A DNA stretch of 64,000 nt from Candidatus Woesebacteria bacterium (GTDB taxonomy: Bacteria; Patescibacteriota; Microgenomatia; UBA1400; UBA12108): NCBI GenBank assembly GCA_018060845.1, contig JAGOVG010000001.1:15222-79221 (forward strand), in the 5' to 3' direction. Below, one piece after another: positions 6,397-53,165 of this stretch; the first letter of the stretch is position 1; every line of letters begins with the position of its first letter. A program made the position numbers and the translations under genes. The notes beneath the pieces were generated by a model. The model saw only the letters and a program-made list of their open reading frames with translations, was not told where the DNA came from and ran no database searches.

Positions 6397-7559
6397 GGAG
6401 TCTGAGCAGAACTAGTAGCAGGAGTGGGGGTAGGTGAGACTAGAGCACTACTTACAAATGTTTTGAGTATTTCGTCCATCTCTTTGATGATGTTTACATC
6501 ATATTTGGCAGGGACATAATAGGTTACCCCACCAAAGTCGGTAGGAGTCGTAAAGTAAGGACCCTCTGCTTCTTTGTCGCAGAAGAAGAACGTTGATTTC
6601 TCCCCTTCGTTTTGATTAAAGTAACGGCGCATAACGAGATTAGCTTTGGTAGTAAATTCGGTATATTCTTTGTTTCGTAAATCACCTGATGAACCCTGGA
6701 ATGCAGGACTATCTTTAAACAGACAGACGGCACCACCGACAGGAGCCTGATACACCTTAATCTCGTAGTTGTTACGATAAATCGAGACCGTCAGAGTACC
6801 ATTTTCGGAGCTTTCTTTGACTGCCCAAGATTGTGGATGCGAAACAGAGAAAGCGGGATATGCTAGTGCATCAATTTTGCTAGTTACATATTCGACCCAA
6901 TCTATGCCAAGACCTGTTGTGGAGGTTAGCTTGAAAGTGGACAAGACGTTTCTGTATTCTTTGAGCAAACTCTCGCTGCTGATCGCATTTTTGCCGCCAG
7001 CTGGGAGTAGTCTAAAAATATAAATCTTGTCCTGGATCTGCGCATAGGTGATAACTGGTTGAAGACTCGTCTTAGGCCAACTCTCACTCCGCTCAAATGC
7101 ATCGTGATCCCCTACTTTGACTGGACTGGTCTTACTGCTGGTCCTACCATCCTGGAGAGTGCCAAAGTATTCTTCGAGGTTGCTAGTGGTTGCTTTGAAA
7201 CTCTCTATCTCCATAATGGCTGGTTCGTCGGTCTGGACTATTAAGCGACCTGATTGATCGGGACTAGTCTCGACCACGCTCCACTTAGGCGGGAGCGCGA
7301 TGCTATAAAAATGTGGTGTGTTGGTATAGCTGACGTATCCAGGAGGCGCATCTACCTGCTCTCCACCATTCGTTGTAGGAGCCTGGGTGCTACTCCTGCT
7401 AAAGAACGTAATGCCGAGCGCGAGGGAGACCAAGATGGCGGCGACTCCACCCAGAATGTAGGGTAGCCTGTTAGGTTTTTTGGCGTCAGCGACAGGGAGG
7501 ACTGGGGTCGTTTCGAGGATTGGAGCGGTCTGATTTTGAACGGGAGTATTTTCGGTCAT
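6393..7559 (-). CDS. Hypothetical membrane-anchored extracytoplasmic protein
   Basis: One N-terminal TM helix, no recognisable motifs. ATGA overlap with the L,D-transpeptidase gene suggests one operon. Confidence 0.5.
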   Translation of the reverse strand: MTENTPVQNQTAPILETTPVLPVADAKKPNRLPYILGGVAAILVSLALGITFFSRSSTQAPTTNGGEQVDAPPGYVSYTNTPHFYSIALPPKWSVVETSPDQSGRLIVQTDEPAIMEIESFKATTSNLEEYFGTLQDGRTSSKTSPVKVGDHDAFERSESWPKTSLQPVITYAQIQDKIYIFRLLPAGGKNAISSESLLKEYRNVLSTFKLTSTTGLGIDWVEYVTSKIDALAYPAFSVSHPQSWAVKESSENGTLTVSIYRNNYEIKVYQAPVGGAVCLFKDSPAFQGSSGDLRNKEYTEFTTKANLVMRRYFNQNEGEKSTFFFCDKEAEGPYFTTPTDFGGVTYYVPAKYDVNIIKEMDEILKTFVSSALVSPTPTPATSSAQTP

Positions 7560-16254: not shown

Positions 16255-17373
16255 TTAATATAAGTTAAAGGTACTAGATTGTTCGTTTTTGTTGCCGCGC
16301 GCGTCAGTCATGCGAACGGCATAAGAGTGAGCACTACCAGAGTTTCCTTTGAAGCAATAGTCCGCTTTTGGTTGAGTAACCCAGTCACCACTATCGATTT
16401 TGTGCTCGATTTTGAGATCTTTTACTTCGGTTACATTGTCGTTGGGATAGTTGAGCAAGAAACAGGTACCATTCTCGTTCCAGTTGTAGGGACCGGAAAG
16501 GGTAAAGTTGGGAGCGATGTTATCGGCAAGATTCTTATAATCTAGCCGTGCTGTATTGTTGGCGTAAGTTGATTCGCCAAGTGCTTTGGCGTTGTTAATA
16601 GTTAACTCTATTTTGTGAGTGCCGATACCAATACTTACATCGCGACAAACATCATAGGTCTTACCTGCTTCTATCTTTGAATACTGCGAGAGCGTACCCT
16701 CTGCTACGACTTTGTCGTCTTCTCTTAAGGTATAACCTAGCTTGCTACCCTCTGTATCCTGATTACTGACGACATGGAAACAGGTGGTTATTTTGGCCGC
16801 CCAGCCTGATTTGAGTTCGTCAAACTCGCCTATCTGGGTACTACTAAATTCTCTATTGATCACACGTCCTGCGCCAGTATTATCATCATAAGTTTGTTTG
16901 ATGTGGGCACTCGGGTTACCAAAACGGACGTCGAGAGTAGCGCTAGATGTTACAGGAGTAGGAGTTGGGGAAGATGTGGTAGATGCTTTTGGGGTGTCTG
17001 TAGCAATGGTCGTGGGTTTACTACTAGCTTTGCTGCTTGGTTTGGCGCTAGTTTTGGGGCTCGCGCTCGCAGTTGCTGTCGCACTAGGCTCCACAGTGGG
17101 ACTAGCCATTACAGAAGGGCTCGGAGAGGGAGTAACACTCGCGACTTCTTTTTTTAGTTTAGAAAAATAGTAGAGGCCAGCAAAAAAAGAGGAGACTATG
17201 ACTACTACTACAACTCCGAGGAGCATGGGGATGATGGGCGAACTACTCTTTGGTTTGCCGAGAGGGAGAACTGGCGTAGTCTCTGGCTGGGTAACTAGAG
17301 GAGGAGGTGTGACAGGAGACTGTTCGGCTGCAACGTCGGGAGTGTCATTTTGATAAGTGTCCATGGACACCAC
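16255..17373 (-). CDS. Membrane-anchored protein with a Ser/Thr/Pro-rich linker and an extracellular domain
   Basis: TM helix at about aa 48-70, then a roughly 90-aa STP-rich linker (SPSPSVMASPTVEPSATATASASPKTSAKPSSK...), then a globular domain. Confidence 0.5.
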   Translation of the reverse strand: MVSMDTYQNDTPDVAAEQSPVTPPPLVTQPETTPVLPLGKPKSSSPIIPMLLGVVVVVIVSSFFAGLYYFSKLKKEVASVTPSPSPSVMASPTVEPSATATASASPKTSAKPSSKASSKPTTIATDTPKASTTSSPTPTPVTSSATLDVRFGNPSAHIKQTYDDNTGAGRVINREFSSTQIGEFDELKSGWAAKITTCFHVVSNQDTEGSKLGYTLREDDKVVAEGTLSQYSKIEAGKTYDVCRDVSIGIGTHKIELTINNAKALGESTYANNTARLDYKNLADNIAPNFTLSGPYNWNENGTCFLLNYPNDNVTEVKDLKIEHKIDSGDWVTQPKADYCFKGNSGSAHSYAVRMTDARGNKNEQSSTFNLY

Positions 17374-21362: not shown

Positions 21363-21926
21363 TTGTGGTATAAAGAAAGTGATATGAGTAATAAACATAA
21401 GTTAAGCACAAGAGACTACATCTTATATCTCTTAAACAAGATAGAACTTGCCAAAGTTGGAAAGATCAGACTTAACAAACTCGCATTTTTTGTTGAGTTT
21501 GGGTACATATATAAGACTGGTAAACAGTTGTCGGAAACAGAATACGCTGGAATTAACCTAGGTCCTGTTATTAACGACTACCGCAAGATCCTAGCACAGA
21601 TGGAGAAAGATGGTGATGTGAAGATGGAAGGCGATAGGATCGTACCGTTGAAAAATTCGAACTTAATACCAGATGAAGTTAGGGTTGTGATTGATCCGCT
21701 GATTGCACGATTTGACGCTCAGCCAGATCGGCTGCTGGTAAGCATGTCCCATGCCACCGATGCTTACAAAATAACAACTATAGACGAAAAAGTTATGGGC
21801 AAGATAATCGATAAATCACTAGCACCACTTGAGACTGCTTTCTTCGATGAAAAAACTATAGTGGAAGACTTACAAGATCTGCCAAGTATCAATAGAAATA
21901 AGTTGGTTCCGTATGAGTTTGGATGA
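21363..21926 (+). CDS. Panacea-domain (DUF4065/SocA-like) putative antitoxin
   Basis: KIRLNKLAFFVEFGY matches the Panacea domain core (LnKLLYfad). Overlaps the downstream toxin-like gene by 14 nt. Confidence 0.68.
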   Translation: MWYKESDMSNKHKLSTRDYILYLLNKIELAKVGKIRLNKLAFFVEFGYIYKTGKQLSETEYAGINLGPVINDYRKILAQMEKDGDVKMEGDRIVPLKNSNLIPDEVRVVIDPLIARFDAQPDRLLVSMSHATDAYKITTIDEKVMGKIIDKSLAPLETAFFDEKTIVEDLQDLPSINRNKLVPYEFG

Positions 21927-30608: not shown

Positions 30609-30686
30609 ACGTACTAGTTTATAGCAGGTGGCTCATAGTTAATAGGTATTGTGATTTGCAGGATTACTTGATAAAATGCCCCCCAT

Positions 30687-30935
30687 ATGCCAATAACCAA
30701 ATCAGCGATCAAAAAACAAAGAGTCGACAAAAAGCGTTTTAGTGTTAATGCGCCTATCAAAGGACAGGTCAAAAGCACCCTCAAGGCCGCTCGCTCTAAG
30801 CCAACCAAAGAGAGTATTGGCGCGTTCTATACCGCAGTCGATCGCGCAGTAAAAAAGAGCTTAATCCCAGAACGAACAGCTTCTCGCTTAAAATCCAGAT
30901 TGGTTAAGCTAAGTAAGAAAAAAGCCTCGATTTAG
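30687..30935 (+). CDS. rpsT: 30S ribosomal protein S20
   Basis: MPITKSAIKKQRVDKKR...; basic helical protein of 82 aa. Confidence 0.88.
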   Translation: MPITKSAIKKQRVDKKRFSVNAPIKGQVKSTLKAARSKPTKESIGAFYTAVDRAVKKSLIPERTASRLKSRLVKLSKKKASI

Positions 30936-30965: not shown

Positions 30966-31538
30966 ATGCAGCTGCCCGCTTTTTTTGGTCGTCGTCGTGC
31001 GATTAATTTATTACCCAGAGATTCGTTTGAGAGTAGTCAGATTGGCATTGTCCTCGCATGGCTTTTGTCGTTTGGCAAATGGGCAGTCATTGTTACTCAA
31101 CTGATCGTGATGGGTGCTTTTTTGTGGCGATTTTCGCTAGACCGGGAACTTACTGATCTCAAAAAATCGATAGCAAAGAATGTAGCGATAATTAAATCGT
31201 ATGATCAGATTGAGCGAGACTTTGTGCTAACGCAAAAAAGACTTACTACAGCCAAGACCGTAATAAGTCAGCAAAAGGCTATTACCGAAGAACTAGCAGT
31301 ACTCGCCTCCTCGACTCCGGTTGATGTTTGGTACGAAAAACTCACGCTCACCCCGACCTCTACCACTCTCTCGGCATATAGCAGATCTCTACCAGGATTT
31401 AGCCAATTTTTGTCGAGTGTACAGCGTAACCCTAGATACGGCGGGGTGTCTGTTGCCCGGATCCAGGACGGTGGAGCCCAAAATGCTCAGATGCAGTTTG
31501 AGATCAGTATGAACCGAGCTAAGGAGAGTGCTAAATGA
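30966..31538 (+). CDS. pilN: Type IV pilus assembly protein PilN-like
   Basis: N-terminal INLLP motif (RRRAINLLPRD, the PilM-binding peptide), then one TM helix and a periplasmic coiled-coil. Confidence 0.62.
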   Translation: MQLPAFFGRRRAINLLPRDSFESSQIGIVLAWLLSFGKWAVIVTQLIVMGAFLWRFSLDRELTDLKKSIAKNVAIIKSYDQIERDFVLTQKRLTTAKTVISQQKAITEELAVLASSTPVDVWYEKLTLTPTSTTLSAYSRSLPGFSQFLSSVQRNPRYGGVSVARIQDGGAQNAQMQFEISMNRAKESAK

Positions 31539-32209
31539 GTTCGACACGAAGACTACGCTTAGATCTCATGCGTTACTACCGACTACCCTCGGTGCAGGTA
31601 TCTATTGGTGTTGTTCTAGCTTTGTTTATCACCGCTTTCTTTATCATGTTTGCGATCAGACCAACATTTGCAACCATCGTGACACTGCAAAAAACGATTG
31701 TAGAGTCGAGAGAAACGCTCAAATTGCTAGAGACCAAAGTAACATCACTCGGCAAGGCCTCGACACTACTTGAAAAAATCAAACCTCAGCTGCCACTACT
31801 AGATAGTAGTATCCCAGCTAACGGCATGAACTATGATGAGATCTCGTACAGTCTGGAGGCTCTAGCTCAGAACACAGAGACTACTCTCGAGTCATTTACA
31901 CTAGGCAAGTCAATACTATCTTCACGCCTAGTTAGTGCATATGAACCAAGTAAAAAAAGTGAGGTGATCCCGAGTCCTATCACTATCCGAATTAATGGGA
32001 CATATCCACAAGTAGTAGCCTACCTTAGTCGACTCGCGAGTACGATCAGATTAACTAGCATCGAGAGTGTGGCCATTATCCGAGATGGCACTGGCTCTAA
32101 TAAGACTGGGACCGGCGGGCTCACCATGACGATTGGCGGGAGTGTGTATTACATGGGCGACACAGCTGCTATTAACAAAGTACTAACTACTAGCGAGGGA
32201 GGCAAATAA
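31535..32209 (+). CDS. pilO: PilO-like bitopic membrane protein
   Basis: Short cytoplasmic N-terminus, TM, coiled-coil (LKLLETKVTSLGKASTLLEKIKPQLPLLDSSIP). ATGA overlap with pilN. Confidence 0.5.
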   Translation: MSSTRRLRLDLMRYYRLPSVQVSIGVVLALFITAFFIMFAIRPTFATIVTLQKTIVESRETLKLLETKVTSLGKASTLLEKIKPQLPLLDSSIPANGMNYDEISYSLEALAQNTETTLESFTLGKSILSSRLVSAYEPSKKSEVIPSPITIRINGTYPQVVAYLSRLASTIRLTSIESVAIIRDGTGSNKTGTGGLTMTIGGSVYYMGDTAAINKVLTTSEGGK

Positions 32210-32210
32210 C

Positions 32211-32570
32211 ATGGCTCACCGCACACTAGTGATGGTTAAGAGGACATATCTACATGTTGGCGTAATAACGCTATTTACGGCGGTTTTGTGGTTAATCATT
32301 ACACTCTATAACTCGATGACTGCAGTTACCGAGGTAGCAGTTGACGCCAATATCAAATCCCCTATCAATCCCTCATTTGACGAAGCGGTGTTTATGGAGG
32401 TAATAGGACGCGAGAATCTGAGTAGTCTATCATTCGAAGCCCCAGCAAGCAGTGAGAGCGCTGTCACAATAAACGAGATAGTGGTCGCACCTGAGGCGAG
32501 TGAGACCCCGGCTGCTGATCCGACTGTAGAGGATACAACAGAAGTAAATACTGAGGTGGCAACCCCTTAA
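32211..32570 (+). CDS. Small membrane-anchored acidic protein
   Basis: TM helix followed by an acidic, Thr/Glu-rich tail. In the same operon as pilN/pilO. Confidence 0.4.
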   Translation: MAHRTLVMVKRTYLHVGVITLFTAVLWLIITLYNSMTAVTEVAVDANIKSPINPSFDEAVFMEVIGRENLSSLSFEAPASSESAVTINEIVVAPEASETPAADPTVEDTTEVNTEVATP

Positions 32571-32608
32571 ATGTGATAGCATGAAATTATATTAGATAGG
32601 CTCGCTTT

Positions 32609-33961
32609 ATGCTTGGCAAAAAGATCCCCACATTCCTAGCTCTACTCCTCCTCGTCTCTATTGGGATCTGGATCTGGATATGGCAGCGAAACAGAGTGGG
32701 CGTGACGAGTAATGAGATAGTACCCCAATCTGTCAAAATAACTAACATTGCAGATAATAAATTTAGTGTGTCATGGACTACCCAAGCACCAACTGTTGGT
32801 TACGTAGAGTACGGGAGTGTGGGAGAGAAGCTAGACAAACAAAAAGGTGATGACCGTGGCGAGAGCTACGCAGGTCTAACACACCATATTACAGTCACTG
32901 ATTTACAGCCTGCGACCAACTATGCTTTTCGCATACTATCAGGTGAGCGCTCGCAGCGCTTTGACAACAATGGCAGTGTCTATACAGCTCAGACAGGTGT
33001 GACTATCTCTAGTGTGCCAGCAGCCAGGAGTTTGTACGGTAGCGTGAGCGGAGCCAGCGAGGATACGATCGTTTATATTGCCCTACCCGACGCGCAGCCA
33101 GCATCCATTACTCTTAACTCTAGCGGCACATATAGTGTCCCCTTGTCTACTATCCGTAACGGTGACCTCACACAGTTTGTGTCATATGACCCGGCCGCGA
33201 CAATAGTAGCTTTGACACTGGATAATGGGGTCGCCAAATCTGAGGTTAATGTCTCGACCACCAATATTACCCCAGTACCAACTATTGCGATGGGTCAGAA
33301 TGCAGACTATAGAGCAGCACCGGGACAAGAGGAGCCAGTAGTCTCGCAGATTGCCCAGGTGGAGCCACAGACCACTACCACAGAGCCTGTCGCAACCGTC
33401 GAGCCATCACCCACTATGGCTGCACAACCTGTAGAGATCTTTAATGTAGAACCGCTATCCAATCCAGAAATCAATGCAGTGACCACGGGTTCGTATACCC
33501 TCACCAACCCTGCTGTCGAGGGTGAGGTACTATCGACCACCAAGCCAGAGTTTAGAGGGACTGGGGCAGCTAACGCCTCTATCACCATAGCAATTAGCGG
33601 CCAAAAAGCCGTCACTGACACTGTTGTCATTAGTGCAGGTGGCAGCTGGAGCTGGACACCAGCTATTGCGCTATCTTTGGGTAAACAAAAGATTACAGTG
33701 TCATACAAAGACAAAGATGGCAAAGCACAGACAATCGTCCGTAACTTTAGCATTACTGCTGCAACTACCACTAGCGAACCAGCATTTGTCTCGACACCAT
33801 CGGCTAGCACTACGACTACTATTGCAACTGCTTCGCCGCGAACCAACCTCCCCGCGACTGATAGTGGTGTTCCTGTTACTGGAGTAATGACGCCTATGCT
33901 ATTGACGGGAGCCCTAGGGTTTGCCATTATGGTAGTAGGCGCATTGTTACTGGCGCTTTAG
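32609..33961 (+). CDS. Surface protein with an FN3-like domain, Thr/Pro-rich stalk and a C-terminal LPATD-plus-hydrophobic anchor
   Basis: Signal-anchor at the N-terminus. FN3-like block (FSVSWTTQAPTVGYVEYGS...THHITVTDLQPATNYAFRI). C-terminus NLPATDSGVPVTGVMTPMLLTGALGFAIMVVGALLLAL. Confidence 0.6.
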   Translation: MLGKKIPTFLALLLLVSIGIWIWIWQRNRVGVTSNEIVPQSVKITNIADNKFSVSWTTQAPTVGYVEYGSVGEKLDKQKGDDRGESYAGLTHHITVTDLQPATNYAFRILSGERSQRFDNNGSVYTAQTGVTISSVPAARSLYGSVSGASEDTIVYIALPDAQPASITLNSSGTYSVPLSTIRNGDLTQFVSYDPAATIVALTLDNGVAKSEVNVSTTNITPVPTIAMGQNADYRAAPGQEEPVVSQIAQVEPQTTTTEPVATVEPSPTMAAQPVEIFNVEPLSNPEINAVTTGSYTLTNPAVEGEVLSTTKPEFRGTGAANASITIAISGQKAVTDTVVISAGGSWSWTPAIALSLGKQKITVSYKDKDGKAQTIVRNFSITAATTTSEPAFVSTPSASTTTTIATASPRTNLPATDSGVPVTGVMTPMLLTGALGFAIMVVGALLLAL

Positions 33962-33962
33962 G

Positions 33963-35519
33963 TTGATGAATATGACTGACCCAAATACACCAACAACTCC
34001 ATCCAGTAACCCCCAGGATCTCATCGACCAGGCACTTGGTGGCACACCTACCCCAACCATGACACCAGATCCAACACCCACAGTTACAGAGCCCACCCTA
34101 CCTACACCAGAACCATTAAGCGCCCCAGTAGTCGTCGAAGATACTCCTGTACTACCCCCAACCGGGACAGTCCCAACGGAGTTAACTACTACCCCTGTTA
34201 TCCCCACGATGAGTGAGCCACCAGTAGATACCAAACCAATGGGTGAAGATATGCCTCTAGCTTTTGCTGGTATTCCTAACGATGTAGCTGCTGATATTAA
34301 CCTTAACAATGTCTCTGCGCCTATCATTGAACCTGTAAATAACGTAGTACCACCAATCTTGACTAATCCCGCCCCAGCCGCGCCAGTGAATAAGGGTAAG
34401 GGTGCAATGTCTAAGGTTAAGATGGTGATAGTCGCTGCTCTAGCTTTCTTTGGTATTGCTAGCGCTACTGGTTACTGGGCTTACAGTCAGTATGGAACAG
34501 TTAGTCCAGCCATAATCGCTGGTATTAAAGATCAGTCTGAAGATACTTGTAGCGGCTGTGTAAATGGTGGATGGATGAGATGGGACAAAAAGACTGGAAC
34601 ATGTAAGCATACGGGTATTTGTGGCAGTGGAGTGCCAGGAAAAGATACAGAAGATCCTGTCATTGCACGAGCAGAGGACGCAAACAGTCCCACTGCTTGT
34701 TCACAGGCAAAAGGGGTATGGTGTGATAGTACTGATTCTGTTGGCAAACGCTACTCATTCTGTATCTCAAATCAAAGTACTACCGGTTGTAATCAAGCAG
34801 CCATTGATAAAGGGTACACTATAACTTTGGGAAAGGTCCAATGTGAGTGTAAAGATGCAAAGATCGGAACTAATGGATGTCAGAACTGGGGGGTATCTGC
34901 AGAAACACTGGCAGCGATGGAAAGTGCTCAAGTTGGATCAAATACTTACAACCAGAACTTAATGGCTGCCACCTCACAGTGCCAGAACGGAGGTAATTTT
35001 AGCGCGGTCTCGTCAGAAGCGTTTATATGTCCTCCTGGTGTGAGCGGACCTTGTACAGCATTGAACGGCAAACCATTCAAAGGAAACTTGGGTTGTTTCT
35101 GTGGAACCGTACAGGTAGATACTCCAAATGGTCACACAAGCTACAGTTCAACATGTGGCTGTAACAAACCAGAAGAAACTCCCAACCCAACTCCTACCCC
35201 AACTCCATCAGTCCCAGTATTTAGCACCCTAATGTGTTCTAACTTGACTCGAACACCTACCACTACTCCGGTAATTGGTGACAAAGTGACATTTACATGT
35301 GTCGGCGCATCAGTACCTGCCGGGAGCGTGAATCTCAGCTACAAGTTCCGCTATAGTCTAAATAGCGGCTCATACATCAACCTCACTAATAAGACAGCTA
35401 CTACCTCAGAACTATCTATTGCAGCATGTGGAAACTATAGCGTAGAGTGCCAGGCATGTGGCACAATTAATGGAGTACTAACCTGTGATCCTAATTGGGC
35501 AGGAGCAACAACACAATGA
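33963..35519 (+). CDS. Pro/Thr-rich N-terminal region, single TM helix, then a Cys-rich (roughly 30 Cys) extracellular domain
   Basis: PT repeats (TPTPTMTPDPTPTVTEPTLPTPEP), a TM helix (VIVAALAFFGIASATGYWAY), then many spaced cysteines. Confidence 0.5.
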   Translation: MMNMTDPNTPTTPSSNPQDLIDQALGGTPTPTMTPDPTPTVTEPTLPTPEPLSAPVVVEDTPVLPPTGTVPTELTTTPVIPTMSEPPVDTKPMGEDMPLAFAGIPNDVAADINLNNVSAPIIEPVNNVVPPILTNPAPAAPVNKGKGAMSKVKMVIVAALAFFGIASATGYWAYSQYGTVSPAIIAGIKDQSEDTCSGCVNGGWMRWDKKTGTCKHTGICGSGVPGKDTEDPVIARAEDANSPTACSQAKGVWCDSTDSVGKRYSFCISNQSTTGCNQAAIDKGYTITLGKVQCECKDAKIGTNGCQNWGVSAETLAAMESAQVGSNTYNQNLMAATSQCQNGGNFSAVSSEAFICPPGVSGPCTALNGKPFKGNLGCFCGTVQVDTPNGHTSYSSTCGCNKPEETPNPTPTPTPSVPVFSTLMCSNLTRTPTTTPVIGDKVTFTCVGASVPAGSVNLSYKFRYSLNSGSYINLTNKTATTSELSIAACGNYSVECQACGTINGVLTCDPNWAGATTQ

Positions 35520-36397
35520 AACCACTAACCCCTACACTCAAAAAATCTATTCAGATCGGACTCGCGGTATTTGCTGTGATTACGATCTCGCTCGGTGTAG
35601 TTTATTTGGTTAGACAACCATCAACAACCCGCCCCACTCCTACACCATCACCAAAAGTAGCGATGAGCACTACCTCACCTGTTCCGGTCGGAATAAATGA
35701 AGTAATACCAGCAGCAAAAGCAAAATGTTCTCTAACCTTTACCGTCGCTTGTATTGGCTCACCTACACCTTCACCATCAATCTCACCCACCCCCTCCCCA
35801 TCAGGCACGCCTATGGTCTATGTGTCCCCTTCACCATCTACCCCAGCTTCGGCTGACCTAGACTGTGTATCAAAAGAAGTATATGCCGACGACTCTCGTA
35901 ATAGAGCTGGCTTCTACTATCTTGAGTCACGAATAGCTGAGGCATCATCACTAGCCTCTGGCTCGACCATCGTTTACAGCATCATTGCCAAGAACCACGG
36001 TGGATCGACTGTCCCAGATACCAAGATTACCGACACGCTATCTTCTAACCTGACATTTGTTGACTCTGACAGTGACTGTACCTTTGATAGTGCTACCCGA
36101 ACTGTTACCTGTACCATCGGCACACTAGCAGCTGGTGCACAAGCACAGAGATCTATCAGAGCGCGTATTAATGTCTCATCCAACACCTCTATTGCTAACA
36201 CAGCCGAAGTATTCTCTAGTAATGGCCAGCGTAACAGCTGCTCGGTCCAGCTAGATGCAACAGGCAAGATAGTAGTACCTCCATCCCCAGTACCAACAGA
36301 GCTACCTGTAGCAGGTGTGTTTGAGGTGACTGCAGGAACGATCGGAGTCGGAGTAGTCTTCTTAATCCTCGGCGCACTAGGTCTACTACTACTTTAA
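35516..36397 (+). CDS. Surface protein with signal anchor, PT-rich linker, DUF11-like repeat domain and a C-terminal LPVAG-plus-hydrophobic anchor
   Basis: ATGA overlap start (MKPLTP). DUF11-like block (IVYSIIAKNHGGSTVPDTKITDTL...CTIGTLAAGAQ). C-terminus TELPVAGVFEVTAGTIGVGVVFLILGALGLLLL. Confidence 0.58.
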   Translation: MKPLTPTLKKSIQIGLAVFAVITISLGVVYLVRQPSTTRPTPTPSPKVAMSTTSPVPVGINEVIPAAKAKCSLTFTVACIGSPTPSPSISPTPSPSGTPMVYVSPSPSTPASADLDCVSKEVYADDSRNRAGFYYLESRIAEASSLASGSTIVYSIIAKNHGGSTVPDTKITDTLSSNLTFVDSDSDCTFDSATRTVTCTIGTLAAGAQAQRSIRARINVSSNTSIANTAEVFSSNGQRNSCSVQLDATGKIVVPPSPVPTELPVAGVFEVTAGTIGVGVVFLILGALGLLLL

Positions 36398-36519: not shown

Positions 36520-38928
36520 TTACTTCCAGGTAGGAAAGATCTTAAACAAGCTATCCCAGTACTCGGTAGGGAGTGGGTAACCATAGAGCATGGGTGAAAT
36601 TAGGACTAGGGAAATGCAACAGAGCAACAATGCAACATTGCGATATTTGATTGGGAAAGAGAGGAGCCAGCTAGCAAGGATTGGGAGCAGAAAAACGGCA
36701 CTAGGCAAGTAATGATAATAGAACATGATGCGAGGAGAGATGACCCAGGGAATAAAGAGAATAAAGTACAAAGTATAAAGAAGCAAGTATGGGAACCGGC
36801 GAATAAGTGGTAGCTGCAGAATGAGAGCGACCAATCCTAGCCAGAGAATGAGTGGGTTGGCGTGAACATAGATGTTACTTATCACGCCCTCCCCATACTG
36901 CACCCAGTACCACACAGGCCTAGCTCCAAAGATCCATTGCAGCGGTGTGGACTGGTAGCCATGGGTTGCGACCAGTGTCGTGTGGTAATACCACATTTGT
37001 CGGTGCAGCTCCCACCACTGAGCCCAGGTATGACCGGCCAAAATAAAGGGAGCGAACGTCAAAATGTACACTGCAGTAGCAATTAAGATATAGCGTATCG
37101 CAAAGATGAGATGCTTAATATAGTGCATGAAATTTTGCTTTGAAAAGAATGAGTTGTTGTAGCTGTAGAGTAGAGATAACGGAAGAGAACCATAGAGAGC
37201 GCTCCATTTACTACCGAGGGCGAGGCCATAGAGGATAGCGACCATCTTCCATCTAGATTTGACGGCCGCATATAGGGACCAAATATAAAAAGTTAGCATG
37301 TAGCTATCGTTCATCGCAATGCGAGACTGAGCGATATGTGTCCCCTCGATGGTCATCAGGAATGCTGTAAGGAGCGCAAGATTTTTGTTGTTAGTAAGAC
37401 TAGATACAAAGAGGTAGAGTCCTAGGATACCGAGCACTCCCATCACAGCTGAGCCAACACGGTAGCCTAGCTCCCCTTCGCCCAAAACCAACATGCCGAG
37501 GACCATCCCGTATTTGGCAACGGGTGGGTGCGTCCACTCGTAGGCCACGCCCTCGGGCGGCTTGGTCCACCACTCCCATGCTTCGACACGACTGTGCAAA
37601 TATTCTCTCGCAGTAAAGCCATGATAGACCTCGTCAAAGATGTAAGCAGCGGGGTGAGAGAGGTTAACAAAGCGGAGGAGCGTCGCTATGATGAGGATTA
37701 GCATCAGTGACTTATTTGATCTAATAATATTCGTAATCTTTTGGTAAAAATCAGGAACCATTGTGGTTATTAATAGTGATAGCGCGGAGAGCACGGTCGC
37801 ATAAGAACTGATAATAGTGACCCAGATCGGGAGTGGCCAGACTTGATTATTCATCACCCAGGAAAAAGCTGAGTAGAGGTTGAGGATGTAGCAAAGACTT
37901 AAGATTATGTAATGACTAATTAATTTGGGATTATTTATAAGCGCAATGATTAGGAATGGCAATCCAAAGAGAAGATGCCTCTCGTGCATACGAGATGTTA
38001 CGGTATAGAAAATAATGAGAACAAGAGCGCTTAGCTGGTAACTCAGCTTAGGGTCAAACCCTGTCTTAAACCAGGATTTAAATATCAAGAATAGAGAAGT
38101 GAAAAATAAGAATAGTCCAAAGGCATGACCAGAGATACCGAGGAGAGTTAAGTTGTCTGGTACCCAGCTAATGTTACCGGTAATAGTCCAGAGATTCCAG
38201 GCATTAATACTAAGGTAGGGGTAGGTACCAGCCTGCTCGACTGCACGAGAATACATAAAAGAGATTACTTCCCAGGGCATTTTGACAAAAGGCAGTGCTG
38301 TTAAAAAGAAAATGGTGCCAGAGACTAGTGGGAACTGCCATGCCTGCTTCTTTTTGATTGCGACTATCCAGAGGATGGGTGCGATCAGGAGCATGATTGG
38401 CTTGTAAGCCACGGCCAGACCATAGAAGAGTGCAGAGAGCATCGTTGATTTGGTACTTAAGGTTTTTGGTGTGACTAACATCGAGAGTGAAAGCAAGCTC
38501 AGGAGACTCGGGATAGAGTCAACCTGTCCCCAATAAGTGGTGTTGCCAATGGTCGCTGGCGCGAGCAGGAGCAGAGCGATGATCACTTGATTTTTGAGAC
38601 CAGTGGAGCGGATGATAAGAGCTAGGAGCAGGAGCTCGACCACAGTATTGGTTGCTTTAAAGACTAGCGTAAAGTCGAGCGAGAACAATTGACTTAAATA
38701 AGTAGGAAGCGCAAAAGTAAGGATTGGGAGCGGCAGATAATCGGACCAGATACTGCCAAAGAACGCTTGTGGGCCAACTGATAGTAGGTGTGATCCCCAG
38801 GCATGGTATGTACCGATATCATAAGGCTGAGCAGGCAGGGTTAGACCATAGATACGAACGGCTAGCGCGACTACTAGCGTGAGATAAAAAAGATTGAGAG
38901 AACTAAAGATTGTCCGAAACATATTCAT
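36520..38928 (-). CDS. Fused two-module GT-C membrane glycosyltransferase; the C-terminal module is GT39/PMT_2-like
   Basis: More than 20 TM helices. The C-terminal half has YIFDEVYHGFTAREYL and WTHPPVAKYG, the PMT/ArnT-type DE and HPPLaK motifs. Confidence 0.72.
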   Translation of the reverse strand: MNMFRTIFSSLNLFYLTLVVALAVRIYGLTLPAQPYDIGTYHAWGSHLLSVGPQAFFGSIWSDYLPLPILTFALPTYLSQLFSLDFTLVFKATNTVVELLLLALIIRSTGLKNQVIIALLLLAPATIGNTTYWGQVDSIPSLLSLLSLSMLVTPKTLSTKSTMLSALFYGLAVAYKPIMLLIAPILWIVAIKKKQAWQFPLVSGTIFFLTALPFVKMPWEVISFMYSRAVEQAGTYPYLSINAWNLWTITGNISWVPDNLTLLGISGHAFGLFLFFTSLFLIFKSWFKTGFDPKLSYQLSALVLIIFYTVTSRMHERHLLFGLPFLIIALINNPKLISHYIILSLCYILNLYSAFSWVMNNQVWPLPIWVTIISSYATVLSALSLLITTMVPDFYQKITNIIRSNKSLMLILIIATLLRFVNLSHPAAYIFDEVYHGFTAREYLHSRVEAWEWWTKPPEGVAYEWTHPPVAKYGMVLGMLVLGEGELGYRVGSAVMGVLGILGLYLFVSSLTNNKNLALLTAFLMTIEGTHIAQSRIAMNDSYMLTFYIWSLYAAVKSRWKMVAILYGLALGSKWSALYGSLPLSLLYSYNNSFFSKQNFMHYIKHLIFAIRYILIATAVYILTFAPFILAGHTWAQWWELHRQMWYYHTTLVATHGYQSTPLQWIFGARPVWYWVQYGEGVISNIYVHANPLILWLGLVALILQLPLIRRFPYLLLYTLYFILFIPWVISPRIMFYYHYLPSAVFLLPILASWLLSFPIKYRNVALLLCCISLVLISPMLYGYPLPTEYWDSLFKIFPTWK

Positions 38929-39868
38929 TTACCTTGATCCAGCTAGTTTGTGGTATCAGTACCCACTGCCCTGCATATGGAGATAGGTTTTTTGGGTTAT
39001 ATAACTGGTTCTCGATCGTTACACTTTTGATCTCATCAAAGTTTAGACTTAGTCCTAGCTTGGTAAACGAAGAGGCAGCTGACTCATCAATGTCGGTCTT
39101 GATAGAGTCGCTCAATGCCTGCTTGAGTGTTGTGATGCGCTCTGAGTTAAAGACAGTGTTTCTGGAGATTAGGCTCGCAATAAAAGCTCTGATTACTTTT
39201 TGTTGTCTTTTGCTCCGGGCAAAATCTGTCCCCTCGTCCCCTAGCGCGTGGCGAGACCTCACATATTTGAGCGCGGTGACGCCGTCCATTTTTTGGGTAC
39301 CTGCTTCAAAGTGGAGGTGCTCGTAACGATCAGCTTCGGGTTCGACATTTTCTTTGCCTGGGATTGGGTATTTGTAGTCATCAAAAGTCTGGTCGACTGT
39401 AACTGTGATCCCACCCACGGCATCGATTGCTTTGATAAAGCCAGAAAAATCGATGAGCAAACTGTAGTGGATCGGCAGACCCGTTACTTCGGTTAACGCA
39501 GTCTTTAATTTGGATAGGCCAGTGCCAGGCTCTGCTTGGTCACCGTAGTAATAGATGCTATTAATTTTGGCTCGGTACGAAGTGAGGTAGATATCGCGTG
39601 GGATACTAATGAGAGTGATCTTTTTAGTGTCATGATGAACTGAGGCGATCAAGATACTATCGGTGAGCTCTCCCCCCTGGTGACCCTGACCCCCGACGCC
39701 GAGGAGGGCGATGTTGGTGCGAGAGTTCGTAGTTGCTAAGACCTCAATAGGCGGCTGTGTGATGCCGCGCGCATAATCTTTTATATTTTGACTCCGGTAG
39801 AGCCGAGCACCTGCTGCCACTAAGAGCGCAGCTACTAGAGCAGCTAGGATCGGGAGTTTAGCGCGCAT
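38903..39868 (-). CDS. LytR-CpsA-Psr (LCP) family cell-wall glycopolymer transferase
   Basis: N-terminal TM; LCP core NIALLGVGG...LTDSILIASVHHDTKKITLISIPRDIYL. Confidence 0.85.
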   Translation of the reverse strand: MRAKLPILAALVAALLVAAGARLYRSQNIKDYARGITQPPIEVLATTNSRTNIALLGVGGQGHQGGELTDSILIASVHHDTKKITLISIPRDIYLTSYRAKINSIYYYGDQAEPGTGLSKLKTALTEVTGLPIHYSLLIDFSGFIKAIDAVGGITVTVDQTFDDYKYPIPGKENVEPEADRYEHLHFEAGTQKMDGVTALKYVRSRHALGDEGTDFARSKRQQKVIRAFIASLISRNTVFNSERITTLKQALSDSIKTDIDESAASSFTKLGLSLNFDEIKSVTIENQLYNPKNLSPYAGQWVLIPQTSWIKVNEYVSDNL

Positions 39869-49487: not shown

Positions 49488-50163
49488 TTAGAATGGTAAA
49501 TCACTCTTAGTATTCCGATACCTTTCATTAACATGCCGATACTTACAAAACCGGCAATCCTCATTCTCATTGGGGATTGGGCCAGTGATGAGCGTATTGA
49601 TCTCATCCATAAATTTGGTGAAAGATGACTCGTCGATTGGGACTTCGAGCCACTTGGGTGGGAAAGTTAGAGTGGCAACTCCATTATCGAACTTTACCTG
49701 ATCGGGATACATGACAATAAGACCCATTTGGGTGATGCGAATTGGTTCGTCATGCCTGGGATGTTCCATGGCGAATTTGTAGGAATAGAGCTGGGTCTTA
49801 TATTTATCGATTTTGTCCACATGTGGCTGAGATAGCTTAAAGTCTACTAAAAGATATGTACCATCTCGACGTTTAACTAGTAGGTCATATTTGCCTTTGA
49901 GATACAGCTCTGTGCCGGGTATAACGATAGACTCCACAAATCCCCTCCTGCTTCTCAACGATTCCCTCTGGTAGACTTGGGGATAGGGCACGCAACTCTT
50001 TACCAACTAGCGTTCCTTGTAAGCGAGTATTGATAGCTGAGAAGATCCCTGGCATGGGCATTTGAGGCCTCATAACCTGATCGTGGACTTTCATCCAATA
50101 ACATCGTTTACACTCTTCATATAAATAGGCAAAATCTGATGGAGAGAGTTTGCATTGATGCAT
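49488..50163 (-). pseudogene. Cas4-like/RecB-family PD-(D/E)XK nuclease with Cys cluster, interrupted by a 1-nt frameshift
   Basis: N-terminal ORF has SPSDFAYLYEECKRCYW (Cas4 YCPRrfY-type). C-terminal ORF, in another frame, has GKYDLLVKRRDGTYLLVDFKLS (D...D/ExK), TQLYSYKF (QxxxY) and a C-terminal CRFC. The two frames would join by deleting one C in the CCCC tract at 49942-49945. Confidence 0.65.
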
Positions 50164-50165
50164 AG

Positions 50166-50759
50166 TTATGAGTTCTTCTCTCGTATCTCTTCCTCTAAGG
50201 ACTTCAATGTAGATTCAAATAGTGTCATAAATTCGTCAGTTTTCCCATTAGTTGCTCCGTACAATTCCATCCAAAGCCCTTCTGCATCTTTATTGCCGAT
50301 TCTATTAGTCGGATCGTCCCATTTAGATTCGTAAAAGATTTCAAAATCTATTGCATATCTTTTTATCAGGTCTAGGATTGATTGAATGTATTTAGTTTTA
50401 TCTTTTCCCCATAAGGCGTCGGCTCTGAGCTTTAATATTCTGAGATGACTATTAGTTTCTATTACGTCATTAAGTCTTGCTGCATGTTCACTGTAATGTG
50501 CATCACGTTGTTTTTCCACATCCTTCATAATATCTTGTTGATATCTATAAAATCTTCCTCTCGCATGTATGAGCTTTTCTTCTATCTCATACACACATTC
50601 CATAATTTCAAGTGATAATTTGTATTCATCTTGACCTTTTACTTGCTTCTTCCATGTTGACAACCCTTGATACGCTATCCATACTCCAAAACCTACTAGG
50701 AGAGAGTTAACTAATTCTAGATTTAACATGTTTAATAGACATGGTAGATTAATTAACAT
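50166..50759 (-). CDS. Hypothetical protein with N-terminal TM helix, directly downstream of hsdMS
   Basis: Lies 4 nt after the hsdMS stop. N-terminal hydrophobic helix (LVNSLLVGFGVWIAYQGL), then a charged helical domain with no recognised motif. Confidence 0.45.
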   Translation of the reverse strand: MLINLPCLLNMLNLELVNSLLVGFGVWIAYQGLSTWKKQVKGQDEYKLSLEIMECVYEIEEKLIHARGRFYRYQQDIMKDVEKQRDAHYSEHAARLNDVIETNSHLRILKLRADALWGKDKTKYIQSILDLIKRYAIDFEIFYESKWDDPTNRIGNKDAEGLWMELYGATNGKTDEFMTLFESTLKSLEEEIREKNS

Positions 50760-50763
50760 ATCA

Positions 50764-53163
50764 TCATTCTGACCATAAATTAGATAAAAGTAAATCTACT
50801 TTTTGCTCATATATTTCAACTAGTTGTCGCACGTTATCGACTAACATATATTCTGAATTAATATTTTTAATTATTTCGATTTGAGTTTCAGCCGAGGGAA
50901 AAGGTACTTCAATATCTTCTATTTGAGATTTACTTATTGAATCAAATACTGCACCTCCGTTTCCTACTATTTCCTTTTCAATCATTTTCAAATATGTAAA
51001 TAAAAACATCTGATTTATCTTTATTGGTTTTATTGCTGCCAGACCTCTCCCTATACAGATTTGTTCTGTAGTAATGTTTACGGGTCCAACAGGTGCTCGA
51101 ACTGACATCAGAATATCACCCTTATCTGCAACCTTAGATGTTTTTGTAGTCCACTTCGTAGGCTTCCGTAGATAGACATCTCCAAATTCTGTTTTGCCTT
51201 GATAAAATGCCATCCCTTGCTCAGAATCGTTATAATACTTTCCTTCTGGTGATTGGCCTGCAATAACATTAGCAACTTCGTGTAATTTGACTTTATTCCA
51301 AAGCTTATTAATTTCTATACTAGGTTTCCAATTATTTTTTATTAGCAGAGCCCCATTTATAATTTTCTGATAATTATCTATCTTTGCAACGATTTGATCC
51401 TGAATTTCAATTGATGGTAAGGGTATATTAAACTGTCCTAAATCACTAGTTTTCATTGTTACATTTGCTGCTCCACTCATCAATTTCGCCATTTCCTTCT
51501 TAACACTATTTAATACGTAATACAGGTATTTAGTATTCAATTGGCTCGCATCAATGGGCACTAGCAGAGCTAATAAATTAGCAAGAGCAAACTTTCCTGT
51601 TGTGTAATGTATCCTCTTTATATCGGCTTTCCCGTGTCCCGTTGCGGAAATTAGAGGAACAGCAACTCCTTCGCCCTCAAAATCAAAATGATCTGATGAT
51701 TTTATTATTTCTGCAGTTAAATATAATTTGTATGGACCATTTTCAGTTTTAGTGCTTGATGACTTTCCTTTTACTATTGTGCAAATTTCCGCTAAAGGTA
51801 CATACTTAATATCTGTACTTACAACATCTCTTTTTTTATATTTTAATAATGAAAGATTATAGTTATTATTTATTATTTCTTGTTTATTTATAATTGAAGA
51901 TAAGTGATTAGGTTTGATTTTCGTACTACTTTGGTAAGCTTTAATTATTTTGAGAGCAACTTCTAAATCGTTTTCTTTTATAATTTTTTGAGTTGCGCCT
52001 AGACTTACTCCAGTGCTATGGATATCTATAAATATAAGGTTGTCATTCAGATTATTAAGAGCCTTATCAAAAACTAATATAGAAGTTTTTACTCCTGAAT
52101 ATGGTTGAAATACTCCACTTGGAAGACTAATGACAGCATACAATCCATCATTAATAAGATTTTTACGTAACTCAGTATGGGATTTTCCAGTTTGGAAAAT
52201 AATACCTTCTGGAACAATAATTGCAGCTCTCCCGTTTGGCTTTAAATGATTCATTATGTAGTCAACAAACAATACCTCTGAACGACTAGATTGAATACTG
52301 AATTTGCTGTGTGGAGTAATTCCTCCTTTTGGAGACATGAAAGGAGGATTGGCTAAGATAACATCAAACTTATCATTCCAACGTTCATCTTGTGACAGTG
52401 AGTCGTACTGAAATATTTTTGGGTTCTTAAATTGATGAAGATACATATTTACCTGAGCTATACGGACCATCCCTGGATCAATATCATATCCTTCAAAGTT
52501 ACCCATCATTTTCCTGCGCTCGTCAGGTGTTAGCGCTTTTTCTTTCTTATCTGGATCATTTTTCCCATCATGCTTCTCAAGTATGTGAAGGAAGGATTTG
52601 ATTAAGAATCCTCCTGTCCCACAAGCTGGGTCTAGCACCTTATCATCCTTAGTTGGATTTACAACATCTACCATGAAATCAATAATGTGTCGTGGAGTTC
52701 TAAACTGTCCGGCGTCCCCTTGACTAGACATGATTGAAAGTAGATATTCGTAGGCATTGCCAAGCTCTTCTGGATGAGAGTAATCAAAGAATCCTATTTC
52801 TTTAAGAAATAGTCCTAGTGTTTCTGGTGAACGATATGGTAAAAATGCAGATTTGAATATGCCTCTAAATAACTCTGGGAGCTGTTTAGATTCGGAGAAC
52901 TTAACTAATGCCTCGGCATATAAATTCATTCTCTCCTGATTACCGAGCCGTGAGTCCATAATTCTAGTCCATGCGTATTTCTCTAGGTCACCGACAAAGA
53001 AGGCTGGCTCTCCACCTACTTTCACCGAAGCTTGATCTATATCGTCCATGAACTTGTAGATTAGAGCAGTAGTGATTTGATCAATCTGAGATGTCGGATT
53101 GGGAACCACCCCTACAAGCACTTGTCGTGCCGCGTCTATATGTCTTTTAGTGTCTGTATTCAT
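50764..53163 (-). CDS. hsdM: Type I R-M fused methyltransferase-specificity subunit (HsdM-HsdS fusion)
   Basis: HsdM_N helices, motif I DPACGTGGFL, motif IV ILANPPF. Two HsdS-type TRDs follow, each ending in a conserved spacer helix (LPLPSIEIQDQIVAKID; VPFPSAETQIEIIKNINSEY). Confidence 0.85.
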   Translation of the reverse strand: MNTDTKRHIDAARQVLVGVVPNPTSQIDQITTALIYKFMDDIDQASVKVGGEPAFFVGDLEKYAWTRIMDSRLGNQERMNLYAEALVKFSESKQLPELFRGIFKSAFLPYRSPETLGLFLKEIGFFDYSHPEELGNAYEYLLSIMSSQGDAGQFRTPRHIIDFMVDVVNPTKDDKVLDPACGTGGFLIKSFLHILEKHDGKNDPDKKEKALTPDERRKMMGNFEGYDIDPGMVRIAQVNMYLHQFKNPKIFQYDSLSQDERWNDKFDVILANPPFMSPKGGITPHSKFSIQSSRSEVLFVDYIMNHLKPNGRAAIIVPEGIIFQTGKSHTELRKNLINDGLYAVISLPSGVFQPYSGVKTSILVFDKALNNLNDNLIFIDIHSTGVSLGATQKIIKENDLEVALKIIKAYQSSTKIKPNHLSSIINKQEIINNNYNLSLLKYKKRDVVSTDIKYVPLAEICTIVKGKSSSTKTENGPYKLYLTAEIIKSSDHFDFEGEGVAVPLISATGHGKADIKRIHYTTGKFALANLLALLVPIDASQLNTKYLYYVLNSVKKEMAKLMSGAANVTMKTSDLGQFNIPLPSIEIQDQIVAKIDNYQKIINGALLIKNNWKPSIEINKLWNKVKLHEVANVIAGQSPEGKYYNDSEQGMAFYQGKTEFGDVYLRKPTKWTTKTSKVADKGDILMSVRAPVGPVNITTEQICIGRGLAAIKPIKINQMFLFTYLKMIEKEIVGNGGAVFDSISKSQIEDIEVPFPSAETQIEIIKNINSEYMLVDNVRQLVEIYEQKVDLLLSNLWSE

Positions 53164-53165
53164 AT

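Follow-up and report, generated by a model that had tools for sequence, protein, structure and literature searches.

To our knowledge, a positively charged tail is a defining feature of all described sortase-type sorting signals, and all CTERM signals that we know of end in a basic cluster; in the type IV pilus machine, the INLLP motif of PilN is the peptide that is clamped by PilM, a role that reportedly comes from the PilM-PilN peptide complex of Thermus thermophilus. Here, we analyze a six-gene operon located in a stretch of 64 kb from Candidatus Woesebacteria (candidate phyla radiation (CPR)/Patescibacteria, Microgenomates), which we refer to as “the window” and whose positions are used as coordinates: the operon opens with pilN and pilO, continues with four envelope proteins, which we call p3, p4, p5 and p6, and two of these, p4 and p6, end in a shared C-terminal module that resembles a sortase signal, but has no basic tail.

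Several described systems are close to parts of this locus. The only type IV pilus locus of a closed Microgenomates genome is described as containing pilA, pilD, pilB, pilT, pilC and pilM, with pilN and pilO not being listed, and a sortase is present in that genome (PMC7143001); in Saccharibacteria, pilM, pilN and pilO are found together in pilus loci (PMC11623550). A sortase family is reported to occur in nearly all Microgenomates (PMC6744442). CLIPPER domains have a CnaA-like fold with an intramolecular isopeptide bond, and occur typically in the pilins of Gram-positive bacteria and in fibrillar adhesins (PMC12617251). The Pam pili of CPR bacteria are encoded by an operon located between genes for ATP/proton motive force sensing and ATP synthase genes, and employ donor-strand pilins and PapD-like chaperones; the helpers of this system keep a C-terminal transmembrane (TM) helix, e.g. 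PamR, which consists of two FnIII domains and a C-terminal helix (bioRxiv 10.64898/2026.03.03.709456). We have found no paper that describes a sorting signal of the present kind in Microgenomates or Patescibacteria: three features that are presented below appear to be undescribed, namely the class-wide operon, the sorting module that lacks a basic tail, and the Cys-rich head with its hypervariability, and the parts are of known kinds, namely alignment proteins of the pilus, domains of the FN3, Ig and CLIPPER types, and a tag resembling that of sortase substrates.

The genes of the operon and the elements within them on which the argument depends are the following:

30966-31538, + strand: pilN, 190 aa, with INLLP in its cytoplasmic N-terminal part (nt 31002-31016), a single TM helix, and a PilN domain at aa 111-182; PF05137.
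31535-32209, + strand: pilO, 224 aa, overlapping pilN by 4 nt; PF04350.
32211-32570, + strand: p3, a small bitopic protein of 119 aa, after a gap of 1 nt from pilO; found at the same position in all loci.
32609-33961, + strand: p4, 450 aa, after a gap of 38 nt from p3; Pfam, AlphaFold2 and >170 full-length homologues.
33836-33958, + strand: C-terminal module of p4, PR..LPATDSG-VPVTG-VMTPMLLTGALGFAIMVVGALLLAL, with VPVTG at nt 33869-33883 and the stop codon TAG; alignments, ungapped against the p6 tail.
33963-35519, + strand: p5, 518 aa (515 aa from the NCBI start, ATG 33972), after a gap of 1 nt from p4; 92 homologues.
34457-35169, + strand: hypervariable cassette in p5, i.e. the Cys-rich head; blastn gaps against loci L004 and L005.
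35516-36397, + strand: p6, 293 aa from ATG 35516, with an ATGA overlap with the p5 stop codon; 190 homologues.
36302-36394, + strand: C-terminal module of p6, LPVAG-VFEVTAGTIGVGVVFLILGALGLLLL, with the stop codon TAA; 13 invariant columns in 35 sequences.

These six + strand open reading frames (ORFs), located 3' of rpsT, are tightly packed, as the first-pass annotation had it, and the coordinates that it gave are kept: the junctions from pilN to p6 are -4, +1, +38, +1 and -4 nt, none being longer than 38 nt. The last of these junctions is counted from ATG 35516 of p6; the ORF itself opens at TTG 35495, but the lengths of the homologues, the NCBI call and the ATGA overlap support the later start.

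The comparison of the C-termini of p4 and p6 has revealed that their last 33-34 residues align without gaps, with P, G and G being invariant over 33 columns, and that VPVTG of p4 is the counterpart of LPVAG of p6. The consensus of the module is [V/L/T]-P-x-[T/A]-G-V-[F/I/M]-E-x-T-x-x-T-x-G-x-G, after which come 12-14 hydrophobic residues, a further invariant Gly among them, and then the stop codon; the hydrophobic segment extends over 25-26 residues after the Gly of the pentapeptide, and in p4 the residues 427-449 are predicted to be helical. The module is kept in 238 of the 240 p4 and p6 homologues. Its pentapeptide, of the general form x-P-x-[T/A/S]-G, occurs most often as VPVTG (85), LPVAG (59), LPQAG (45) and TPVTG (13); the P and the G are invariant (P422 and G425 in the homologue alignments of p4), and the L and the T are each substituted in one of the two proteins. 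In both proteins, conservation is highest in this pentapeptide, with a mean pairwise column identity of 0.87, and the helix that follows it (0.63 in p4 and 0.76 in p6) equals or exceeds the folded domains (0.58-0.69, the CLIPPER domain being at 0.69) and exceeds the N-terminal helices (0.44 and 0.54, respectively).

The first-pass annotation had described the two proteins as ending in unusual anchors, LPATD and LPVAG, each followed by a hydrophobic helix without a basic tail. Two related, sortase-like tails are indeed present, and a K or R within the last eight residues occurs in only 1 of 238 tails, and in neither p4 nor p6 of the window; the motif that is common to the two proteins, however, is VPVTG/LPVAG and not LPATD, which is part of an upstream element that is confined to p4 (P-R-x-x-[M/L]-P-[A/D]-T-x-x-G), lies 10 residues before VPVTG and is absent from p6. 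In several tails (e.g. in L021, P0348 and P0358), the upstream half of the p4 type is joined to a helix of the p6 type, and such hybrid tails show the two tail types to be one evolving module; the alignments establish, at the level of sequence, that the tails of p4 and p6 are homologous.

Two trivial explanations have been considered and rejected. A chance likeness of the two tails is at odds with the gapless alignment, the hybrid tails and the fact that every match of the hidden Markov model (HMM) of the tail is C-terminal; the recoding of UGA, which could mask a basic tail, does not apply to genes that end in TAG and TAA.

Existing models do not recognize the module. Neither p4 and p6 nor their isolated tails match Gram_pos_anchor (PF00746) or TIGR01167 at E-values of up to 1-10, and the NCBIfam search of isolated tails has returned nothing for the p6-type and hybrid tails and a single model for the p4 tail of the window, VPXXXP-CTERM, which scores 17.8 bits where its cut-off is 30. 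The module shares with the LPXTG signal (TIGR01167/PF00746) the P at position 2, the T or A at position 4 and the G at position 5, the Pro/Ser/Thr-rich linker before them, the hydrophobic C-terminal helix after them and the diversity of the adhesin-like cargo (CLIPPER, FN3, lectin-like and Cys-rich). It differs from the LPXTG signal in that the protein ends in the helix without a charged tail, in that the models do not match, in the residues at position 1 (V or T in p4) and position 4 (A in p6), in the strong conservation of the helix (V-x-E-x-T, G-T-x-G-x-G), in an N-terminus that resembles an uncleaved anchor and in the lack of a sortase gene nearby. Because the charged tail and the model match both fail, the tail is not to be filed as a member of the LPXTG family. 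With the CTERM signals (PEP-CTERM, PGF-CTERM and VPXXXP-CTERM), it has in common the layout of a lineage-restricted, portable motif and a TM helix on unrelated surface proteins, but it lacks their basic cluster, no partner enzyme gene is present in the neighborhoods, and the score of the only model returned is far below its cut-off.

The module is not confined to p4 and p6. A search with the tail HMM against 1.84 billion representative proteins has given 34 matches at E <=0.001, all of them at the extreme C-terminus, and the tail-bearing proteins have at least five mutually unrelated architectures; the carriers besides the relatives of p4 and p6 are the DQDA (or QDA) family, Cys-rich repeat proteins, a lectin-like protein and a two-CLIPPER protein. 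The search for further proteins with the same ending, which the first-pass annotation had put forward as the way to check its proposal, has thus returned unrelated families that share the signal, and the sequence comparisons show the module to be portable. Members of the DQDA family combine the motif M..DQDA.DI.QMM on the cytoplasmic side with an N-in TM helix, an ectodomain rich in beta structure, a long Pro/Ser linker and the tail; a metagenome scan with the hybrid tail has added 40 loci of this family (e.g. L029:9059-10150, L038:9164-10132 and L062:7417-8451), where the gene is not linked to pilN-pilO and follows genes for a DEAD-box helicase and a methyltransferase. Other carriers join the operon itself: a lectin-like protein is encoded by a seventh gene directly after p6 (L027:10001-10894), and three extra genes for Cys-rich repeat proteins are located at the 3' end of the operon in L021 (12554-13741, 14898-16118 and 16115-17122). 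Two of the three extra genes of L021 look like a recent duplication. Several of the tail-bearing families own an uncleavable N-in TM anchor and a cytoplasmic motif.

In four of the metagenome loci, a polytopic protein of ~400 aa with the motif HQDDLDW and no Pfam match is encoded directly 5' of the DQDA gene (L029:7857-9062, L038:7913-9130, L056:6339-7589 and L067:7828-8997); it looks like a GT-C-type glycosyltransferase and parallels the PMT-family protein that is located next to p6 in the window, so that both kinds of tail-bearing loci adjoin candidate protein glycosyltransferases. The other neighbors that Pfam identifies at the metagenome tail loci are helicase, methyltransferase, GNAT, TrpRS/TyrRS, PIN protein and DprA genes.

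The protein that is encoded between p4 and p6 has no C-terminal anchor. It consists of a disordered cytoplasmic N-terminus, a TM helix (aa 149-177, nt 34407-34493), a Cys-rich alpha/beta domain (aa about 190-405) and an FN3-like domain (aa 420-510); it has 24 cysteines, and not about 30 as first counted, all of which are located after the TM helix, outside the membrane. No Pfam or NCBIfam model matches p5; its AlphaFold2 model has a predicted local distance difference test score (pLDDT) of 74, with about 90 in the folded domains, and the Cys-rich domain has no structural match in the PDB. Over the 370 residues that were searched, p5 is 100% identical to KBD69_00265 of Candidatus Woesebacteria GCA_020049755.1 (JAHZTO010000034.1, 226.7 kb).

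The comparison with the two closest genomes has shown that p5 stands apart from the rest of the operon: PilN, PilO, p4 and p6 are 87.5-97% identical, but p5 is only 70% and 57% identical at the protein level. The difference is concentrated in residues 281-360, which have 28-30% identity to L004 and 5-10% to L005, compared with 92-100% in the flanking parts; at the DNA level, the flanks are 80-87% identical and enclose a segment that does not align (34632-35045 against L004 and 34457-35169 against L005), with the replaced segments being of different lengths. This pattern is the signature of an exposed domain that faces a ligand or host and is subject to diversifying selection or to the exchange of cassettes. 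The adhesin set of three surface proteins that the first-pass annotation had proposed does not hold as such: p4 and p6 are core proteins, each encoded in a single copy and strongly conserved, with 45-55% identity across the class, which is close to the conservation of PilN, and only p5 behaves as a variable, ligand-facing protein among the products of the operon.

Two motifs are conserved in the disordered, Pro/Thr-rich cytoplasmic region of p5, NPQDLIDxALG (here NPQDLIDQALG, nt 34008-34040) and PMGEDxPLAF (about nt 34236-34265); by analogy with INLLP of PilN, they look like docking peptides for a cytoplasmic partner. Two further proteins of the window, at 6393-7559 and 16255-17373, both on the - strand, are built in the style of p5, with an N-terminus rich in Pro and Thr, a single TM helix and a domain outside the cell, and have neither a Pfam match nor the C-terminal module.

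The architecture of p4 and p6 is that of surface proteins. An N-terminal TM helix (aa 5-29) is followed in p4 by an FN3 domain (aa 40-128), a second beta-sandwich (aa 141-234), a disordered linker, a Big_13 Ig-like domain (aa 300-382), a disordered linker that is rich in Pro, Ser and Thr, and the C-terminal sorting module. Pfam gives fn3 at 31 bits, Pur_ac_phosph_N at 39.5 bits and Big_13 at 31 bits; the AlphaFold2 model has a pLDDT of 83, with >90 in the domains, and Foldseek retrieves generic FN3/Ig strings (FN3 strings at E 4e-9) and adhesin stalks. In p6, the N-terminal TM helix is followed by a linker that is rich in Pro and Ser and contains a conserved Cys pair, a CLIPPER/DUF11 domain of CnaA-like type (nt 35939-36226) and the sorting module. 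The domain matches PF01345 (CLIPPER/DUF11) at 57.2 bits (cut-off 24.6), TIGR01451 at 32 bits (cut-off 24) and, below the cut-off, RrgB_K2N_iso_D2 at 24 bits, and the check for FN3 and DUF11 domains that the first-pass annotation had advised has therefore been positive on both counts, in p4 and p6 respectively. K120, D173 and N236 of p6 are invariant across 35 homologues and are compatible with a Lys-Asn isopeptide triad; sequence searches of the PDB with p6 have given no usable match. The likeness of p6 to the CLIPPER/DUF11 fibrillar adhesins and the isopeptide pilins lies in the PF01345 domain and these three residues; it differs from the adhesins in having a single domain instead of tandem stalk repeats, and in being small, single-copy and conserved.

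The remaining envelope protein, p3, consists of a basic N-terminus, a TM helix (about aa 12-34), an ectodomain with the conserved motif VD...LEPI.P..D......L..R and a variable acidic tail; no Pfam or NCBIfam model matches it, and no fold could be recognized. The description of p4-p6 as Ser/Thr/Pro-rich is accurate in terms of composition, with S+T+P amounting to 29-34% compared with 20-27% in PilN, PilO and p3, but has to be qualified in that the excess is concentrated in the linkers. The Pam pili, which we have compared by description, resemble the present proteins as CPR surface structures made of Ig-like/FN3-like proteins with C-terminal helices; they differ in having no pilN and pilO, the context here being murJ, rpsT, PMT and LCP genes, and structure searches with the models of p4 and p5 have found no chaperone-like fold.

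The operon is conserved across the class. Our sample of related loci comprises 3 loci that were reached through p4 homologues, 20 from species-representative genomes and 1 metagenome locus from JGI; in every locus of sufficient length, the order rpsT-pilN-pilO-p3-p4-p5-p6 is kept, with pilN always next after rpsT, and the closest other loci also belong to Woesebacteria or Microgenomates. The conservation of this array, together with the more than 170 (p4) and 190 (p6) protein clusters that keep the architecture, is far beyond chance. We therefore describe it as a class-wide envelope operon of Microgenomates, whose genes would be co-transcribed. At the distance where PilN is 52-62% identical, p4 is 43-49%, p6 37-55% and PilO 34-47% identical; on the basis of these class-wide identities, p4 and p6 act like core machinery and not like fast-evolving adhesins. 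Several contigs that carry a clearly Microgenomates operon (L005, L007-L009, L011, L012, L020-L023, P0022 and P0165) have the public titles “uncultured Pseudomonadales” or “Thiothrix sp.”, and look like mislabeled bins.

The leading genes of the operon are genuine members of the PilN and PilO families, and the first-pass annotation was correct in naming them, in noting that rpsT precedes them and in noting the lack of pilM nearby. A failure of the two calls at the HMM thresholds, which it had named as a refuting outcome, has not occurred. PilN of the window passes the PF05137 cut-off narrowly (25.0 bits against 22.8), and all 20 of its 20 orthologues match the same family (best E 4.6e-10); AINLLP is located at residues 12-17, followed by a hydrophobic segment, with N14, L15, L16 and P17 being invariant in the 20 orthologues. 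The profile search of the PDB has given only a weak match, to the PilN chain of Myxococcus xanthus (3jc8, E 0.36), so the membership of PilN is based on Pfam and the motif. PilO also passes narrowly (PF04350, 22.7 bits against 22.0), and a profile of its 20 orthologues matches PilO of M. xanthus (3jc8, E 1e-7) and of Pseudomonas aeruginosa (2rjz/5uvr, about 3e-5). The start of PilO is placed by NCBI at 31568, but the nearly invariant D10 and the invariant L11 are located 5' of that position, which favors the longer protein from 31535.

The presence of INLLP leads us to expect a PilM partner. Of the ORFs of the window, 36 have been put through Pfam, the others being lepA, murJ, dnaK, grpE, hrcA and tpiA, which are named from the annotation of their orthologues, and four short ORFs; among these 36, there is no pilM, pilB, pilC, pilT, PilD or sortase domain, i.e. 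the genes that the first-pass annotation had wanted located are not found here. The gene tables of the related loci contain no PilM-like gene, and a pattern search has found no prepilin motif anywhere in the 64-kb window. Compared with the pilMNO(PQ) clusters, the likeness consists of the INLLP motif, the one TM helix and the PilN domain of PilN, the structure match of PilO, and the adjacent, overlapping genes; the differences are the lack of pilM in the operon or the window, the absence of pilP and pilQ, the position of rpsT in front, and the four conserved non-pilus envelope proteins downstream, with p3 occupying the position of pilP. The operon thus contains members of the PilN and PilO families, but it is not a pilMNOPQ cluster. 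The published Microgenomates pilus locus, with its pilM and without listed pilN and pilO (PMC7143001), fits such a split arrangement.

The features that surround the operon and are drawn on below are the following:

30649-30677, + strand: promoter-like site TTGTGA-17-TAAAAT, with a TG, just 5' of rpsT; weak pattern evidence.
30687-30935, + strand: rpsT (ribosomal protein S20), first gene of the conserved array; ORF, orthologues with PF01649.
36520-38928, - strand: PMT-family GT-C glycosyltransferase, conserved convergent neighbor; Pfam, same neighbor in related loci.
38903-39868, - strand: LytR-CpsA-Psr (LCP) enzyme, conserved convergent neighbor; Pfam, same neighbor in related loci.

The end of rpsT is 30 nt from pilN. 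Promoter-like sites in the region are no more frequent than is expected from shuffled sequence, and no + strand terminator-like site is seen between rpsT and the end of p6, which is likewise weak pattern evidence. The usual shared flanks of the related loci are murJ and lepA on one side, and PMT, LCP, TIM, UvrD and FemAB on the other; in the window, ftsK, RNase J, an L,D-transpeptidase, PNPase, IF-2, nusA, dnaJ, dnaK, lepA and murJ are located upstream of the operon, and the PMT-family glycosyltransferase, the LytR-CpsA-Psr enzyme, triose-phosphate isomerase, UvrD and FemAB downstream. The PMT and LCP proteins are candidate modifiers of the Ser/Thr-rich linkers, and belong to the context of the operon rather than to its proven parts. 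The PMT-family protein is 802 aa long, with Pfam PMT domains only at residues 410-801 and 400 hydrophobic, unannotated residues at the N-terminus; since versions of 398-444 aa and of about 804 aa occur among its relatives, two membrane modules seem to have been fused.

Two compositional features of the window lie apart from the operon. The G+C content drops to 0.335-0.386 at 50-54 kb, compared with 0.45-0.50 elsewhere, in a region (50001-55742) that contains the genes of a type I restriction-modification system (fused M+S subunit at 50764-53163, R subunit at 53166-55742) and has probably been acquired as an island by horizontal transfer. At 18-22 kb, a smaller dip contains a SocA/Panacea antitoxin-like gene (21363-21926).

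The reading that we favor, and to which we give about an even chance, is that the locus combines type IV pilus alignment genes, split off from the rest of their machine, with envelope proteins that carry a lineage-specific, sortase-type signal. According to this reading, PilN and PilO would serve a type IV pilus machine whose remaining genes are encoded elsewhere, and the tail-bearing proteins would leave the cytoplasm through Sec and stay in the membrane by means of their C-terminal helix, until a sortase of the lineage cuts after the T or A of the pentapeptide and joins them to precursors of peptidoglycan; the putative cut would fall within PTELPVAGVFEVT. The conserved stalk proteins, i.e. 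p4 with its three beta-sandwich domains and p6 with its one CLIPPER (isopeptide-type) domain, would in this way be fixed in the wall beside the pilus platform, where p5, oriented N-in with its cytoplasmic docking motifs, would present a variable, disulfide-rich, ligand-facing head. Cleavage by a sortase, wall attachment and physical association with the pilus are all steps that we infer.

Processing is favored over simple anchoring on account of the spacing of the sortase motif (P at position 2, T or A at position 4 and G at position 5), the Pro/Ser/Thr linkers that precede it and the hydrophobic segment that follows, the diversity of the cargo and the N-terminal anchors that already exist; since several families own an uncleavable N-terminal anchor, the tail would not be needed merely for retention. 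The murJ, LCP, FemAB and PMT neighbors, as context, fit wall attachment and the glycosylation of the linkers.

A number of observations weigh against this reading. No sortase has been found in the window, by Pfam on 36 of its ORFs, by tblastn with an approximate query of Staphylococcus aureus SrtA or by the TLxTC pattern, and the same search of ~0.8 Mb of related loci, including 41 metagenome tail loci, has found none either, so that the presence of a sortase in this genome is taken from the literature only (PMC6744442). The basic tail of the classical sorting signals is absent in 237 of the 238 homologues, and Gram_pos_anchor, the LPXTG models and the CTERM models other than the sub-threshold VPXXXP-CTERM do not match. 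Conservation of the helix behind the pentapeptide equals or exceeds that of the folded domains, which is odd for a peptide that is to be discarded and agrees with an interaction in the membrane that lasts. The hydrophobic segments at the N-termini are at least 20 residues long, with the helix of the p4 model covering aa 5-29, and resemble signal anchors and not cleavable signal peptides. Lastly, any contact of p3-p6 with PilN, PilO or the pilus is itself something that we infer.

The strongest alternative, which we hold to be possible, but rather unlikely, is that the tail is never cleaved, and acts as a permanent C-terminal membrane anchor and as an assembly tag for a fixed envelope complex around the pilus platform, in which the Gly-rich helix (GT.G.G......G..G) would pack either with other tails or with the TM helices that PilN, PilO and p3 contribute. 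The conservation of the helix, with its 13 invariant columns in p6 and the contrast of 0.76 to 0.54 in the N-terminal TM helix, is what would be expected of such a tag, as are the lack of a basic tail and of any match to a sorting-signal model, the clustering of the tail genes with pilN and pilO in all genomes, where the extra ones join the same operon, and the lack of a sortase gene nearby. The most conserved element of the module, however, is the pentapeptide, which lies outside the helix and has the P, T/A and G spacing of sortase motifs; moreover, the large DQDA family carries the tail at loci that are unrelated to pilN and pilO, and its proteins are already anchored at the N-terminus, so that a second plain anchor seems redundant.

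Distinctly unlikely, in our estimate, is the more specific proposal that a platform of PilN, PilO and p3 recognizes the Gly-rich module and assembles p4, p6 and interchangeable cargo into an envelope-spanning display with the p5 head at its tip; if true, surface proteins would be sorted on type IV pilus alignment proteins, outside the classical sortase rules and in a manner specific to Microgenomates.

We consider it very unlikely that the tail is the signal of a different processing system, such as an exosortase, archaeosortase or rhombosortase, that cuts in or near the membrane and attaches a lipid or glycan. A short motif and a TM helix at the extreme C-terminus of unrelated cargo in one lineage is the CTERM layout, the sole weak model match is to VPXXXP-CTERM, and GT-C-type glycosyltransferases adjoin tail genes at two unrelated loci (the PMT protein, and the HQDDLDW protein by DQDA); against these points, no exosortase-like or rhomboid-like gene was seen beside any tail-bearing gene, the basic cluster is absent and the match is far below its cut-off.

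Just as unlikely, finally, is the stronger version of the first-pass annotation, in which p4, p5 and p6 are pilus subunits or adhesins that are polymerized by a sortase or attached to the type IV pilus: pilus genes do lead the operon, and the CLIPPER domain of p6 is CnaA-like, with RrgB's isopeptide D2 domain also matching p6 below the threshold, but pilin genes normally adjoin a pilus-type sortase gene and none is present in the cluster, p4 and p6 are single-copy and strongly conserved instead of variable, and the window has no prepilin signals. The published parallels are that Gram-positive pilins and fibrillar adhesins typically carry CLIPPER-type domains (PMC12617251), and that CPR bacteria make pili that are not of type IV, with Ig-like subunits and with helpers that are anchored in the membrane (bioRxiv 10.64898/2026.03.03.709456); the Pam operon of the latter, however, adjoins ATP synthase genes and has other components, by which description it is set apart from the present locus.

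The separation of pilN-pilO from pilM explains why annotated Microgenomates pilus loci seem to be without these two genes. The C-terminal module, which is not recognized by NCBIfam or Pfam, provides a compact, searchable tag for the prediction of the surface proteome of Microgenomates; if a sortase processes the tail, this would show that the positively charged tail is dispensable in this lineage, and if a sortase does not process it, this would point to a different mechanism of anchoring or assembly. Members of the CPR/Patescibacteria are thought to live attached to other microbes, and a class-wide operon that couples pilus-platform genes, conserved wall- or membrane-fixed stalks and one hypervariable, disulfide-rich head has the pattern that is expected of a device for the recognition of a host or a ligand.

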